Part shown: positions 13,419-52,171 of the stretch, piece by piece
How the letters are laid out: every line of letters begins with the position of its first letter
Numbering within the stretch: position 1 is the stretch's first letter
NCBI GenBank assembly: GCA_964016885.1
Contig: OZ024742.1
Location: forward strand, 298,902,001 to 298,966,000
DNA: 64,000 nt
DNA from: Eledone cirrhosa
Lineage: Eukaryota
Reading direction: 5' to 3'
Notes under the pieces: model-generated
What the model was told of the DNA's origin: nothing
The model's input: the letters and a program-made list of their open reading frames with translations, nothing else
Databases searched by the model: none
Made by a program: the position numbers and the translations under genes

Positions 13419-13658
13419 TCTGTGGTAGTAAAGACAATGAATATACATGGCATACAAAAAGTCTAACATTCATATGTTGGTCAGTTTAAGTTGTTTTGTT
13501 TGGTCGTAAACCTACAGTAACTCTGCATTACACTCCCAGGATATATATATATATATATATATATATATATATAACAAATGAATTGTGGTAAGGAAACAAA
13601 TGGACCATAACGCACCAGAGTACTCAATACTTAAAGTAGTAGAGTGGGAAATAGGAAA

Positions 13659-13766
13659 AAGTATGACCCCGACGGCAGAGCTCAAGCCGTTTCGACGGCT
13701 ATTTCAGGACTAAATTAAAATTTTTAGTCTGGTGAATAAATAGCCGAACTTTTCAAGGGGGTACTT
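13659..13766 (-). ncRNA. Type I hammerhead ribozyme candidate, U3-A8 core variant (left arm)
   Basis: Minus strand: aagta-c-cccc-TTGAAAA-g-tt-cggctattt...aaatagccg-t-c-GAAA-cggc-ttgagctct-gccg-TC-gggg-tca-tactt. All three stems form. Confidence 0.75.
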
Positions 13767-14429
13767 CCTTATATGGGAAGATTGTAGTTGTCAAGAGGAT
13801 TGGTTAAAATTTGTTGTAAACACAAATAAGTCTATCATGGCATTTGGTGGAAGGTAGGGGTGGCTGAACTTGTCTGTAGAACAATAGGGGAGTGACAGGA
13901 GCGGTCAAGCGTTGAAAGTGATATGTTTACATCAGATTCTAAGGATAGTGTATGAAGTGGGGTAGGGAGGTTATAGAATAGGAAAATCGAAAGAGAGTAG
14001 GGGACAATAAAAGATACTAGAAAGAAATTAAAAAATATATAAAATTAGATAGTGAGAAATGAATAAAAAAATCGCAATGCTATCTTACAATTACAGGTTA
14101 ATAAGTTGAGAATAGATAAAACTTGTAGAAAATACAAAACTGATACAAAATTAAAGGGGTTTAACACATCTGCTATAAGTAGTTAGTAAAACGTATTCGG
14201 CCAATTCTATCTTAAAATAACAGGGGTGGGGGAACTGATGCTACAAGGCCCGATGGGCTGCATCGGGGTAGGCGAAAGAGGAAAAAGAGACGAGGAAGAA
14301 AATAGGGGGTGGAAGGAAGTGATAGGAAGAGAAAGAGGAAAAGAAAAGAGATACATCTACCTATGTAAGCTGGGGTTTCCCCTAACTTATTCGGCAAGTG
14401 TGTGTGTGGAGGGGGGTATCAGCCCTTGT

Positions 14430-15319
14430 CTACCCACCCGGGTCATTATAGGGTTTGAGGGCGAGGTAAGTCCTACGCAATCTGTGTTTGCATGCGGTTA
14501 CCAGTTCATCTTTCTTGTTTAGGAGTTGGTCCTTCGAAAACACCATTTGTAATGTTTCCTCCGAGCATAAGTTACACGGACGGAGTCCTCCCGTGTAAGA
14601 GTTAGCTCTGGACAGTAAGATCCAAGTGAGATTGTAGGTTATATTATTATCTTGGAGGTTCCAGATGTGGCCCGAAAGGGTACTGGCATGTCGCCGGACC
14701 GGGTTTCGGAAAGTATGTCGCTGTTGGTAGGGACGGGTCTTGAAGTCACACGCGGTTAATCCTAGATAAGCTTTGTTGGAGGTGTCCGTCCTCACGTTGC
14801 ACTGGTAGATCATGCTACGTTCTCGGCATTTGTTGTTGAGGGGGCACGTAGATCTATTAGGGCTGTTACACCTCCTGGTCGGCTCGCCACTGATGTCTAG
14901 GTTATTTCTTCCATAGGGGTTGAGTTTTTTGTTGTTTGAGGAGACGATGTTTTGTGCGAAGTTAGGTGTGGTGCTGCAGGAGAGTTTGGTGGTGTTTTTG
15001 TTGATTATGTTGTGGTAGCGGTGTTGTAGTGGGAAGTGTTTTTCGAGGAGTCTAAAGAAGATTTTCCCGATAGGTGTTGCCACCTCGGCATTGAGGGGAG
15101 GATTGAACTACGTTACGTTGCGTGAGCGGTGGTGTCGCCTGCTGGTTCCGCTAAGGGAAGCTGGGTAAAAGGATATTTCGTCCAGGAAATTGACTCGGGT
15201 TAGGGAAGTGTGTAGGGTGATTTTAAACCCCCAGTCCTGGAAGAAGTTGATTAGTTGTTTACGGACACGGTCTGTACTACTGGGGTTGTACCCTTTGAGG
15301 GTTAGAAGACCATCATCCC
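14430..15319 (-). pseudogene. Inverted second copy of the PLE C-terminal RT plus GIY-YIG, internally deleted
   Basis: ORFs 15108-15419(-) and 14430-15083(-) are near-identical to the plus-strand protein. NFLD is joined directly to EISFYP. Confidence 0.92.
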
Positions 15320-16794
15320 AAAACGTGAGACTTAGCCTATGGGTCAGCACCCAAGAAGAAATCTCATGGTTCAGGAATATGGAGGACAAACGAGACACAA
15401 AATTCATCCAGTCTGACATAGAGAGTTACTATGCATCTATTACCTTACCGCTCCTTACGGCCGCCTTGGACTTTGCCGAAACACTCACACCCATCACTGA
15501 CCAGGAAAGAAATATCATTCTCCACGCCAGGAAGACAGTCCTACTTTCCGACAACTCCAAGTGGATAAAGAGAGCTCCTGACTCCCCCTTCGACATCAGT
15601 ATGCGCGCGACGGATTCGGCCGAGGTCACAGATCTTATAGGATTATTCCTACTATTTAAACTCACCGAAATGTTTCCTGCATTCAGCGGTGGATTGTACC
15701 GGGATGATGGTCTTCTAACCCTCAAAGGGTACAACCCCAGTAGTACAGACAGGGTCCGTAAACAACTAATCAACTTCTTCCGGGACTGGGGATTTAAAAT
15801 CACCCTACAAACGTCCCTAACCCGAGTCAATTTCCTGGACGTTACCCTTAACCTCGAAATTGATCTGTACTACCCATACAGGAAACCACACGACAACCTG
15901 CACTACATCCACCGCTGCTCTAACCATCCCAGAAACATCACCAATAACCTGGTTAAAAACATCTCCCTCCGCATATCTCGTTTGTCCGCTAATGAGCAGA
16001 TAATCGACGAACACGCGCCACATTACAACCAGGCCCTCAAGCGGAGTGGCTTCCGGGAGGAAATATCCTTTTACCCAGCTTCCCTTAGCGGAACCAGCAG
16101 GCGACACCGCCGCTCACGCAACGTAACGTAGTTCAATCCTCCCCACAATGCCGAGGTGGCAACACCTATCGGGAAAATTTTCTTTAGACTCCTCGAAAAA
16201 CACTTCCCACTACAACACCGCTACCACAACATAATCAACAAAAACACCATCAAACTTTCCTACAGCACCCCACCTAACATCGTCTCCTCAAACAACAAAA
16301 AACTCAACCTCTATGGAAGAAATAACCTAGACATCAGTGGCGAGCCGACCAGGAGGTATAACAGCCCTAATAGATCTACGTGCCGCCTCAACAACAAATG
16401 CCGAGAACGTAACGTGATCTACCAGTGCAACGTGAGGACGGACACCTCCAACAAAGCTTATCTAGGATTAACCGCGTGTAATTTCAAGACCCATCTCTAC
16501 CAACAGCGACATACTTTCCGAAACCCGGTCCGGCGACATGCCACTACACTTTCGGGCCACATCTGGAACCTCCAAGATAATAATATAACGTACAATCTCA
16601 CTTGTAGCTTACTGTCCAGAGCTAACTCTTACACAGGACGCCGTCCGTGTAACTTATGCTCGGAGGAAACATTACAAATGCTGTTTTCGAAGGACCAACT
16701 CCTAAACAAGAAAGATGAACTGGTAACTGTATGCAAACACAGATTGCGTAGGACTTACCTCGCCCTCAAACCCTATAACGACCCGGGTGGGTAG
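15320..16794 (+). pseudogene. 5'-truncated PLE (Naiad-type) RT plus GIY-YIG polyprotein with a premature TAG at 16129-16131
   Basis: FIQSDIESYYASI, FDISMRATDSAEVTDLIG, GLYRDDGLL, NFLDVTLNL, YRKP..YIHRCSNHP, then VT*FNPP, NVIYQCNV..AYLGLT..FKTH, LSGHIWNL, CNLCSEE and LLNKKDEL..CKH. Confidence 0.93.
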
Positions 16795-49936: not shown

Positions 49937-50368
49937 AATATGGTTTTATAAATATAGTTTCCATTTATTAACATCATTGATATATATATATATATAGTAG
50001 AAATAGAAGCTTTTTGTCTAAAGAAATTTTAGCCTGATAAAACCCCCTAAAAGTGGAAAAGTATGAGTATTGAACTTACATGTTTCAAAAACAAACACAA
50101 ACTTTCTTGAGATATATATCACTCTAAGAATGGGGAATTGAGCTTGAGACACCAATGTTGACAATAAGATTAGTTATGACATTTTTTCAAAGATATTGTG
50201 CTTTGCTTTGTGACGAAATATAAACTACGTAGTTGGGAATCGATCTCTTTAACCATACGACCATGGTTGCAAGTGTATGCATGGGTGTCTCTCACTGACG
50301 CACTAAGGATTTGAAGAGCAAATAGACCAAATATACCTCATTATTTCTTCAAAGTCTTCAAAGTTATT

Positions 50369-50555
50369 GGTGAATTGGCAGTATCGGTAGAGGGTCGGAC
50401 GCCATGCTTTCCAGCATAGTTACGTCCCTTTACGATCTGAGTTTAAATCCCGCCGAGGTTGACTTTGCCTTTCATCCTTACGGGGTCGATAAAATAAAGT
50501 ACCAGTAATGCACTGGGTAATTGCTGGCCTTGTGCCTAAAGTAGAAACAATTATT
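50369..50555 (+). mobile_element. tRNA-derived SINE with TSD
   Basis: Colinear with 19790-19980. TSD attatttcttcaaagtct at 50340-50357 and 50550-50567. Confidence 0.92.
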
Positions 50556-51989
50556 TCTTCAAAGTCTCGACTGTACAGTTTCGCCGACTGGTATGCAGTC
50601 AGAATGCAACTAAAGTGCACTGGGGCCGTGAGGTTGTCGACTTATCAGGAGACCTCTCAGTAAGAACAAGAAGTCTTGATGGTGTGCAACTAAAACATTA
50701 ATCAGTAAGTTTTACCTTATACTGGGCGGATAAATCTTTAGCCTTTTACTATTGAAATAATCAGTCAATGTCTAGTTTCGATCATCATCCAATGCTCTGC
50801 ATTGATGGCGGTGGCGTCCATGTTTGTGACTGAAGTGATGGAGCTAGTACCGAAAGACGGACTATATAGTTTTGAACTTAATAAAGCGTATTCTCTCCGT
50901 CACTGTACACATTTCGAAATCATTTCTATTCTATTCTTGGTTAATTAATAATAAATAACCAAATTAATTGAATGTCTATTTATAAATGTTTAACTCTTTA
51001 ATACGGAATATATTCACATAAGACACCGTTCCATGTGTTCAAACTGACACGATCAATCAAACATATTTTATAAAGGTTGCTTATTGATTGTGACCTATAT
51101 CTTATTCAATTCATATTGAACTGTACATATTTGAAATCGTTTTTCGCAATGACCTATGAATACTTTCATGTAACTATGTGACTAACTTAGCGTCCGATCG
51201 ATTTGTATGTCTCTCTAGAGGTTACTAAACAGAACACTTATTTTAATATATCACTTCATATTGATTCATTTGAACGTAGAAAAAGTATTCAGTTTTCTAA
51301 AGCTGGTAGTTGTGAAGTAAGATAGATGTTAAAGCACAATAATGGTCTATTCATGAAGTTGCTTAACCCCCGCAGCTGAGCAAAGCACTACCTTTCATAC
51401 TATTGTTGTTAATTCTATAATGCATTCTTAATAGTTTAGCAAACAGTCTATGTACTGAACGTAACTGAGAATAGAATACGAATACATGCAAGAGCCACAA
51501 ACAATATCAACATTGTGTTTTGTTATCTTGTCATTTTCCTAAGCAGTTTTTGGCAGCCATCAAACAGAATGTTTGTATACGTTTTGGTTTATTTTTGTCT
51601 GAATTTACGAATATGATTTATTAGCAGGGTCTTCAATTGCATAATTAATTGTTACGGTTTTAAGTGAATTATCAAAAACATTGTAAGGTTATCATCGATG
51701 TGAAATGTATCGACAATTGCTAAAAGCACGATCACATCTAAAATAAAATTCAAATCGTATCTTGTAAAATATTAGACGATATGGAATTATTAAAACTTGT
51801 ATACAACACAATGTTTTTCTGGTGAAATTATATCTGGCTTCTTCACTTAGAACCAAAAAACGTTGTGGATTATATATATATATATATATATATATATATG
51901 TGTTTGTGTGTATATATGAGTTCGGATCTAGCTGTTGAAATAGCAGGAGCTCAGCTGTAGGAGTCCAGAATTTGTCATATATATATATG

Positions 51990-52171
51990 AATTAGAAATA
52001 TAAGCTATCGCCGTATTTTGACTAAAGAAATTAAAGAACTTAAATTTCTCCGAGGGTTCTTAACCCCACTATCAGGCTAAATGATTTCTTTAATTTCTTT
52101 AGTCAAAATACGGCGATAGCTTATATTTCTAATTTCAAACTCGCTCGCTGTTTCGAAAATATTCTTACTTG
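51990..52171. repeat. Small fold-back: perfect 49-bp arms, 47-nt spacer, one-sided tail
   Basis: 51990-52038 is the exact reverse complement of 52086-52134. Tail at 52135-52171. TA tracts on both sides. Confidence 0.88.

Follow-up and report, generated by a model that had tools for sequence, protein, structure and literature searches.

Head-to-head insertions of PLEs in the window, i.e. the whole 64-kb stretch of DNA analyzed, probably arose by priming from both ends of a cut in a TA repeat, with the starts in Hydra-clade elements set by two hairpins; we give this reading a probability of roughly 0.65. Five structures (E2–E6) are pairs of 5'-truncated PLE 3' ends that face outward in (TA)n, and a bulged hairpin marks insertion ends in related elements of other animals. 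Arm detection relied on masked self-BLAST and on arm alignments of the following listed structures, which are given without strand:

E1, 718..1012: palindrome with 113-bp arms and a 59-nt left extension
E2, 13574..17587: fold-back of a predicted Hydra-clade PLE
E3, 39659..39763: mini fold-back, 3' half of an E2-like HHR
E4, 40275..41650: fold-back of a PLE with CCHH-type C-terminal EN
E5, 45480..49979: non-coding PLE 3'-end fold-back, with E6 nested in its spacer
E6, 46178..49590: fold-back of a predicted Hydra-clade PLE, main copy on the plus strand with a 75-nt tail
E7, 51990..52171: perfect 49-bp arms, 47-bp spacer and 37-nt right extension
E8, 57200..57344: direct homolog of ~7510–7700, not a fold-back

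The sequence-only reading had described all eight as fold-backs with a one-sided extension. This holds for E1–E7 (7/8), whose inverted arms were aligned, but not for E8, where inverted matches reach 8 bp at most and TA is absent at 57200; the claim that 3' ends face outward stands for E2–E6, to which the demonstration is limited. The arms are identical at 112/113 positions in E1 (777–889/900–1012; tail 718–776), 1584/1646 in E2 (13654–15319/15701–17586, one gap of ~210 bp; 80-nt tail, left), 30/35 in E3 (39664–39698/39706–39740; right arm 23 nt longer), 542/551 in E4 (40335–40908/41098–41650; 60-nt tail, left), 195/207 in E5 (45579–45788/49773–49979; ~99-nt tail on the left arm), 1083/1096 in E6 (46180–47290/48416–49515; 75-nt tail, right) and 49/49 in E7 (51990–52038/52086–52134). 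All seven fold-backs are located in (TA)n. A (TA)≥4 tract lies within 3 nt of 14/16 listed ends, as compared to 1.0% of non-tract positions (outside 1–4800); the long ends were partly picked by their TA, whereas the short ends are defined by alignment, and six of these seven lie ≤3 nt and all seven ≤6 nt from such a tract. Folding of the seven tails gave a hairpin z below -2 in E1 and E6 alone. The inverted repeats at 62078–62261 and 36258–36987 show another geometry and are excluded from the count; weak matches between E8 and E2, and of both E4 and E1 to the 36784 region, were judged to be low-complexity.

An origin from PLEs of at least two clades, proposed earlier, was borne out for E2–E6 by motifs, HHRs and homology: two of the five have a Hydra-clade endonuclease (E2, E6), one has a CCHH-type endonuclease (E4), and two are non-coding 3' ends (E3, E5). 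The expected GIY-YIG endonucleases were verified in E2, E4 and E6; a Pfam-A search called none of the three and returned no relevant family. HHRs, anticipated in five structures, are indeed present: each arm of E5 and of E6 has an intact one, that of E4 is minimal, that of E2 has a mutated core, and E3 retains the 3' half. Rfam made no HHR call on two subregions and gave, among the matches listed (150 of 458), TA-driven and hairpin noise alone; the viral contigs searched contained no relative. Further features are:

13574–15319, minus strand: inverted shorter copy of E2, bearing the tail
15320–17587, plus strand: main copy of E2, RT-EN frame broken
13667..13761, minus strand: left hammerhead-like fold of E2 with mutated core, mirrored at ~17480–17574 (plus)
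40485..40527, minus strand: minimal type I HHR in the left arm of E4, partly deleted in the right arm
40880..41098, minus strand: GIY-YIG fragment of E4 with CxxC linker, C..C and H..H, running on in another frame
47288..48217, plus strand: RT-thumb and GIY-YIG frame of E6, 309 aa, with CxCX5C, CxxC and CxH
51919..51977, plus strand: E3-family copy with a single arm, which stops at the E3 register and is followed by TA

In E2 and E6, tblastn and alignment to full-length homologs place GIY-YIG C-terminally, after the RT. E6 has an intact CxCX5C linker as well as CxxC and CxH around E and N, and no CCHH; CxxC and CxH are kept in E2, the linker of which is degenerate. The RWK and DKT motifs, both found in the homologs, were lost from E2 and E6 through 5' truncation. 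The HHR cores of E6 are at 46269 (minus) and 49426 (plus); the HHR of E2 is a three-way junction that keeps its fold (z -3.07), with a descriptor score that is not significant. As judged from sequence, i.e. from endonuclease position, cysteine motifs, HHR and (TA)n, E2 and E6 are Hydra-clade PLEs. Assignment of the non-coding E5 to this clade rests on its HHR and hairpin; its tail is likely on the shorter inverted arm, the spacer orientation being deduced from GC skew. E3, likewise non-coding, is placed via homology to the end of E2; its right end corresponds to the short register of E2, and its left end lies close to the HHR cut site, at neither hairpin register. Single-arm TA-flanked copies also occur in the window, at 9018–9827 and at 51919–51977. 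The longer copy of E4 (minus strand, 41097 to 40275) bears the 60-nt tail. Its C-terminal GIY-YIG with CCHH, CxxC linker and HHR are those of Neptune/Nematis-type PLEs, and the score of the left-arm HHR was reached by 0/60 shuffles; RT is absent from the truncated copy, no match to Hydra-clade proteins was obtained, and the window descriptor scan detected no bulged hairpin of Hydra type in E4.

Three fold-backs carry a bulged hairpin motif in the tail:

13617..13645, minus strand: bulged hairpin, 8 nt inside the E2 tail
45547..45572, minus strand: bulged hairpin, 7 nt inside the E5 tail
49526..49551, plus strand: bulged hairpin, 10 nt inside the E6 tail

A descriptor scan of both strands of the window gave these three matches, all 7–10 nt inside the tails, as compared to 0.86 anywhere in shuffles; the descriptor was composed after inspection of the three tails and recovers 30/56 training rows. 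A second hairpin is not visible in E2, E5 and E6, and register 2 for their long ends is an assumption.

The motif recurs in other animals, in which 78 homolog loci (L001–L078) were collected by a scan with a 10-protein subset of 25 homologs. Among the 41 Hydra-clade PLE loci with enough upstream DNA, the hairpin is present twice in 30, once in 8, and absent in 3, as compared to twin hairpins in 3/41 control windows. The copies are placed between HHR and ORF start, 53–82 nt apart, a range exceeded by the 99-nt tail of E5. Covariation in the upper stem is reflected by 51/51, 30/46 and 27/30 paired positions, versus shuffled means of 39, 19 and 14, and TATA or ATAT precedes 27/51 hairpins, versus 8/101 control windows. 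Eighteen of 22 informative 3' ends (20 families; 56/78 loci were uninformative) lie just ahead of a hairpin, within -2 to +12 nt of it, ten at the first and eight at the second; those of L013, L016, L021 and L024 are out of register. The ends scatter less about the hairpin (SD 3.7 and 1.9 nt) than about the HHR core (SD 13.4 and 11.2 nt).

Fixed, non-random end registers, as postulated, are thus seen in Hydra-clade loci of other animals. The HHR cut site, postulated as the ruler, has to be given up: its distance to the short ends varies (17, 32, 53 and 154 nt), whereas a hairpin, where there is one (three cases), is 7–10 nt away. The hairpin rather than the ribozyme is likely to be the end ruler, and the tail likely equals the hairpin spacing. 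The registers differ in 4/4 Hydra-type fold-backs, which does not establish their coupled use (chance ~0.06, in a sample pre-selected for tails). Head-to-head junctions occur in 7/78 homolog loci; the list of inverted loci was compiled by inspection, with the flagged L015 dropped and L006 added. In all three loci whose outer end can be seen (L006, L037, L071), the inverted arm ends in register; the two ends of L071 fall at different hairpins, the inverted one without TA. Since single-arm TA-flanked copies exist and 7/78 homolog loci are head-to-head, two-end priming is not obligatory.

In the mechanism that we infer, the protein would bind the hairpin and begin cDNA synthesis immediately on its 5' side, at a UA-rich stretch that could pair with the cut TA end. 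As (TA)n is identical on both strands, both cut ends could be primed; a different hairpin used at each end would result in a one-sided tail as long as the hairpin spacing, and the two truncated cDNAs would be joined via short homology and then filled in. Very short cDNAs would give rise to mini-palindromes, e.g. E3. An RT-endonuclease dimer with one subunit per tandem hairpin of one RNA might produce the two cDNAs from a symmetric cut, a suggestion that we make tentatively and regard as rather unlikely. If it were true, the hairpin pair would be a programmable start signal, and tail, inverted pLTR and MITE-like mini-palindromes would be generated in one step.

The proposal that small palindromes are extreme PLE truncations fared unevenly, as E3 is a truncated PLE 3' end but E8 is no fold-back. 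E1 and E7 may have no link to PLEs and represent TA-targeting MITEs, i.e. non-autonomous DNA transposons, or hairpin repeats of another kind, a possibility of some weight that we nevertheless consider doubtful. In its favor, no HHR scored above shuffles in E1, E7 and E8, and neither a Hydra-type hairpin nor a match to any PLE end within the window was found for E1 and E7; a PLE from another clade, if truncated on the 3' side of its HHR, would be expected to lack these marks too. However, the 59- and 37-nt extensions between arm and TA tract match PLE tail sizes, and E3 shows that PLE ends do form mini-palindromes. One-sided extensions between arm and TA tract are unexpected in MITEs, and the inverted repeats of E1 and E7 do not reach both termini, one end being an unpaired extension of 37–59 nt.

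Self-priming, suggested for head-to-head Penelope repeats (PMC3846280), is an improbable explanation. A cDNA or antisense template would fold back and be copied into the inverted arm, the tail being the part not recopied, which agrees with the tails of E4 and E6 on the longer copy, with the short duplication at the center and near-identical arms of E1, and with the 49/49 arms of E7. However, the tail of E2, and likely that of E5, sits on the shorter inverted arm, which has 80–99 nt missing from the main copy (80 nt in E2), and inverted arms end at ordinary 3'-end registers in 3/3 homolog loci; to rescue self-priming, the main copy would have to have lost its tail later, or capture would have to have occurred at the TA-like register. 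Two-ended priming is favored because simple snap-back cannot put the tail on the shorter inverted arm.

Extrusion of a (TA)n cruciform, the resolution of which by the endonuclease would enable two-ended priming, had been envisaged as well, and we consider it highly improbable as a requirement. (TA)n surrounds all seven fold-backs, and supercoiled (TA)n can extrude cruciforms. However, flanks are non-TA at 11/18 in-register ends, L071 has the full geometry despite the lack of TA at its inverted end, the anole PLE cleaves a labelled dsDNA target on both strands at ATT (PMC11167929), and a literature search found no paper joining the terms of this proposal. That the inversions stem from misassembly or from subsequent rearrangement at TA tracts is scarcely credible: E1 is duplicated at 100% (2828–3122), with TA arrays of 1.7–1.8 kb there, but the arms of E2, E4, E5 and E6 diverged by 1–6% through substitutions and indels, E6 is nested within E5, a cis-motif governs the ends, and the same form occurs in Repbase Penelope-13_HM and in independent contigs.

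The origin of PLE inverted repeats and tails has been described as open (PMC8557442, PMC11167929). A conserved 25-nt motif predicting insertion ends within a few bases allows an exact mutational test in an existing in vitro assay, offers a means to distinguish two-end priming from self-priming, and provides a boundary marker for the annotation of Hydra-clade elements. There are grounds for re-examination of TA-flanked "MITEs", and a portable internal start signal in a retroelement might be of use in RNA-templated insertion.

In L1 twin priming, both cut strands likewise prime, and an inverted junction forms within the insert; there, the second primer lands internally to give non-overlapping segments, whereas the arms in the window both copy the same 3' end, at fixed registers.

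The sequence-only reading undersold earlier publications, which already cover the geometry, the targeting of (TA)n, the two start sites and extension on both strands: an inverted 5'-truncated copy, a one-sided tail, (TA)n targets and two RT start sites have been reported (Craig 2021, PMC8557442; Arkhipova 2013, PMC3846280; Frangieh 2024, PMC11167929). The twin bulged hairpin and the end register, not found described in print, are new here; the searched text of Craig et al. 2021 (PMC8557442) yielded no mention of a twin hairpin, and the Hydra-2_Amil consensus has the first hairpin at its end. Hydra-clade PLEs (PMC8557442; Hydra-1_Obim, Penelope-13_HM) share with the window elements the CxCX5C linker, CxxC and CxH around E and N without CCHH, the HHR and (TA)n targets, and Penelope-13_HM is listed with a 5'-truncated inverted copy; known tails are 30–40 nt, in contrast to 75–99 nt in the window. 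Poseidon PAc of the green anole (PMC11167929) cuts and extends both strands of an AT-rich target in vitro, has two internal start sites delimiting the tail, requires RNA 3' of the start and is a predicted dimer. However, it belongs to another clade and starts in one "AC-rich stem loop", a duplicated motif was not reported, and inverted copies were left unexplained. Adineta vaga Penelope (PMC3846280) resembles the fold-backs in its head-to-head inverted pLTRs, one with an optional 31-bp tail, but the account given there, self-priming on an antisense template, misfits E2.

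The sequence-only reading had listed eight insertions, each made of two 5'-truncated copies of one 3' end joined head-to-head with the 3' ends outward. Masked self-BLAST and arm alignments recovered inverted arms in seven of them, and the alignments gave the one-sided extensions (tails).

E1, 718-1012: fold-back, tail 59 nt
E2, 13574-17587: fold-back, tail 80 nt, hammerhead ribozyme (HHR) with mutated core
E3, 39659-39763: small palindrome, tail 23 nt
E4, 40275-41650: fold-back, tail 60 nt, minimal HHR, endonuclease on the minus strand
E5, 45480-49979: fold-back, tail 99 nt, intact HHR
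E6, 46178-49590: fold-back, tail 75 nt, intact HHR
E7, 51990-52171: fold-back, tail 37 nt
E8, 57200-57344: inverted matches of 8 bp only, not sustained as a fold-back

The TA flanks were borne out: a (TA)≥4 tract is no more than 3 nt away at 14 of the 16 listed ends, as compared to a background of 1.0%, in AT-rich eukaryotic DNA with abundant microsatellites; the same distance applies to six of the seven short ends defined by alignment. A second, exact copy of E1 at 2828-3122, found by masked self-BLAST amid long TA arrays, may be an assembly duplication. The stretch 1-4774, which combines TA arrays of 1.7-1.8 kb with 100% identical repeats of the E1 palindrome, reflects either a tandem duplication or an assembly artefact.

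The window contains other repeats as well. A perfect 72-bp inverted repeat surrounds a central (TA)20 at 62078-62261, with TA immediately to its left; its geometry differs from that of the fold-backs, and no mark of Penelope-like elements (PLEs) was found in it. An inverted pair of about 200 bp (191/202) at 36258-36987 has TA tracts at its inner ends and includes a partial direct duplicate at 36489-36526. Degenerate hairpins at 4776-4907 (44/54) and 26303-26412 (42/48) adjoin or lie inside TA-rich DNA. The non-coding repeats 7500-8365 and 57008-57344, the latter between two TA tracts, are related (77% over 77 bp by BLAST, with a longer match by alignment).

For the E6 protein, 25 full-length homologs were identified, carrying RWK, DKT, CxCX5C, CxxC and CxH motifs, which PMC8557442 gives as marks of the Hydra clade; the E2 and E6 proteins share 36% identity across 216 aa. 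By eye, the E6 protein resembles Hydra-1_Obim, which, together with a SINE resemblance, points to a probable cephalopod host. The E4 endonuclease, which has a CxxC linker and CCHH, is unlike the Hydra type and had no match in a search with Hydra-clade proteins. Its closest protein-atlas cluster is GIY-YIG by name, with the Pfam family on just 12% of members. Fragments of the Hydra clade with no mirror arm are also present:

5916-7260 (+): Hydra-clade fragment, starting right at a TA tract
9018-9827 (-): Hydra-clade fragment, starting right at a TA tract
12231-12776 (-): Hydra-clade fragment

Because the first two start at a TA tract without a mirror arm, single-arm insertions coexist with the fold-backs. 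A further hammerhead with a near-intact core and a long stem II lies at 50569-50648 (-), abutted by a SINE-like repeat (50370-50555, at least five copies in the window) with a target duplication of about 19 bp.

The proposal that small palindromes are extreme truncations of PLE 3' ends held for E3, since its arms align to the E2 3' end and its right end stops at the E2 short end. A single-arm copy at 51919-51977 shares this stop, and its alignment to the E2 3' end, like that of the E3 arms, scored above all 200 shuffles; the left end of E3 lies near the HHR cut instead. In E1 and E7 no PLE mark was detected by homology to the window PLE ends, the hairpin descriptor described below, or HHR searches against shuffles.

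Hydra-clade loci from other animals (78 loci from a metagenome scan in which 412 stretches were confirmed and the best 80 retained) contain two copies of a bulged hairpin between the HHR and the ORF start. Each motif has a lower stem of 4 bp (GCUC/GAGC), topped by a short upper stem, with a 2-nt bulge on the 3' side. Of the loci, 41 extend 330 nt upstream; two motifs are present in 30 of these, one in eight and none in three, while one motif was present in 3 of 41 control windows; the two copies are 53-82 nt apart. In 56 motif rows from 28 loci, selected for having two motifs, the lower stem is present in 51, and upper-stem pairs 1-3 are paired more often than shuffled partners; pair 1 mostly reflects two hairpin classes, and pair 3 includes six standard pair types. 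TATA or ATAT precedes 27 of 51 hairpins, as compared to 8 of 101 controls.

For 22 of the 78 loci, an internal continuation within the same element was available for comparison with the 3' end, and 18 of these ends break within -2 to +12 nt of a hairpin (binomial p < 1e-9 under our own null of 30 in 150-250 positions). The 22 loci represent 20 families at 80% identity; of the 18 in-register ends, ten belong to hairpin 1 and eight to hairpin 2. The ends scatter by 2-4 nt relative to the hairpin, as compared to 11-13 nt relative to the HHR. The ends of L013, L016, L024 and L021 are out of register, a motif variant in L021 being uncalled, and TA repeats open just 7 of the 18 in-register flanks. 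A head-to-head junction is visible in 7 of the 78 loci, and further ones are likely hidden by short-read assembly. In the three of these loci whose outer end is visible, this end stops 5-9 nt short of a hairpin; the two ends of L071 lie at different hairpins, one at each. We consider it highly probable that the hairpins mark the end registers in the Hydra clade.

TA tracts occur at further boundaries in these loci. Unit-length copies without a pseudo-LTR (L032:973-3390, L046:653-3168) begin at a TA tract immediately ahead of hairpin 1 and extend to TA after the HHR, which suggests that a tandem or circular RNA was copied over exactly one unit. Copies at L001:951-1000 and L015:2994-3050 are bounded on the 5' side by a TA tract immediately ahead of hairpin 2; in L002 and L050 the tract at this site is expanded, inside a tandem junction. 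L008:2597-2660 and L076:2605-2680 each contain a tail-to-tail join, across the same TA tract, to a second element that bears an HHR or a hairpin.

Searching both strands of the 64 kb with a hairpin descriptor returned three sites, one in each of the E2, E5 and E6 tails and lying 7-10 nt inside it, as compared to 0.86 sites in shuffled sequence; as the descriptor was composed after these tails were known, the result is supportive rather than blind. The distance from the HHR cut to the short end is 17 nt in E2, 53 nt in E5, 32 nt in E6 and 154 nt in E4.

In target-primed reverse transcription, priming by both 3' ends of a cut on the 3' region of the RNA yields two copies with their 3' ends outward. 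We favor such two-end priming, with starts set by the hairpins, at a probability of roughly 0.65. The PLE protein would bind the hairpin, the primer would pair with the element RNA at the start, both starts would be coupled on one RNA, and the two cDNAs would be joined. If the second arm arose by snap-back, i.e. self-priming, the spacer-containing arm would be made first, and the other arm could not hold sequence absent from it. Tail placement in E4 and E6 agrees with snap-back and two-end priming alike. In E2, however, the tail is on the arm without the spacer, as in E5, provided that the E5 spacer is plus-strand, as its GC skew suggests; E2, and E5 under this proviso, therefore do not fit snap-back. 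The (TA)n cruciform invoked by the sequence-only reading is unnecessary for two-end priming.

No description of the twin hairpin or of any explicit two-end model was found in the literature searched, most subscription papers (including the 2005/2006 PLE reviews) and figures being outside the search; the twin hairpin is apparently an undescribed cis-signal, and it makes an open mechanistic question testable. In the text searched, PMC8557442 describes, for PLEs, an inverted 5'-truncated copy and a 30-40 bp tail that can lie at either end, as well as (TA)n targets of Hydra PLEs, PMC11167929 demonstrates cutting and extension of both strands, with two start sites bounding the tail, and leaves inverted copies unexplained, and PMC3846280 puts forward self-priming. 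From these descriptions, the fold-back geometry is therefore already known; the window elements are known elements of known shape, to which the cis-signal is the addition.
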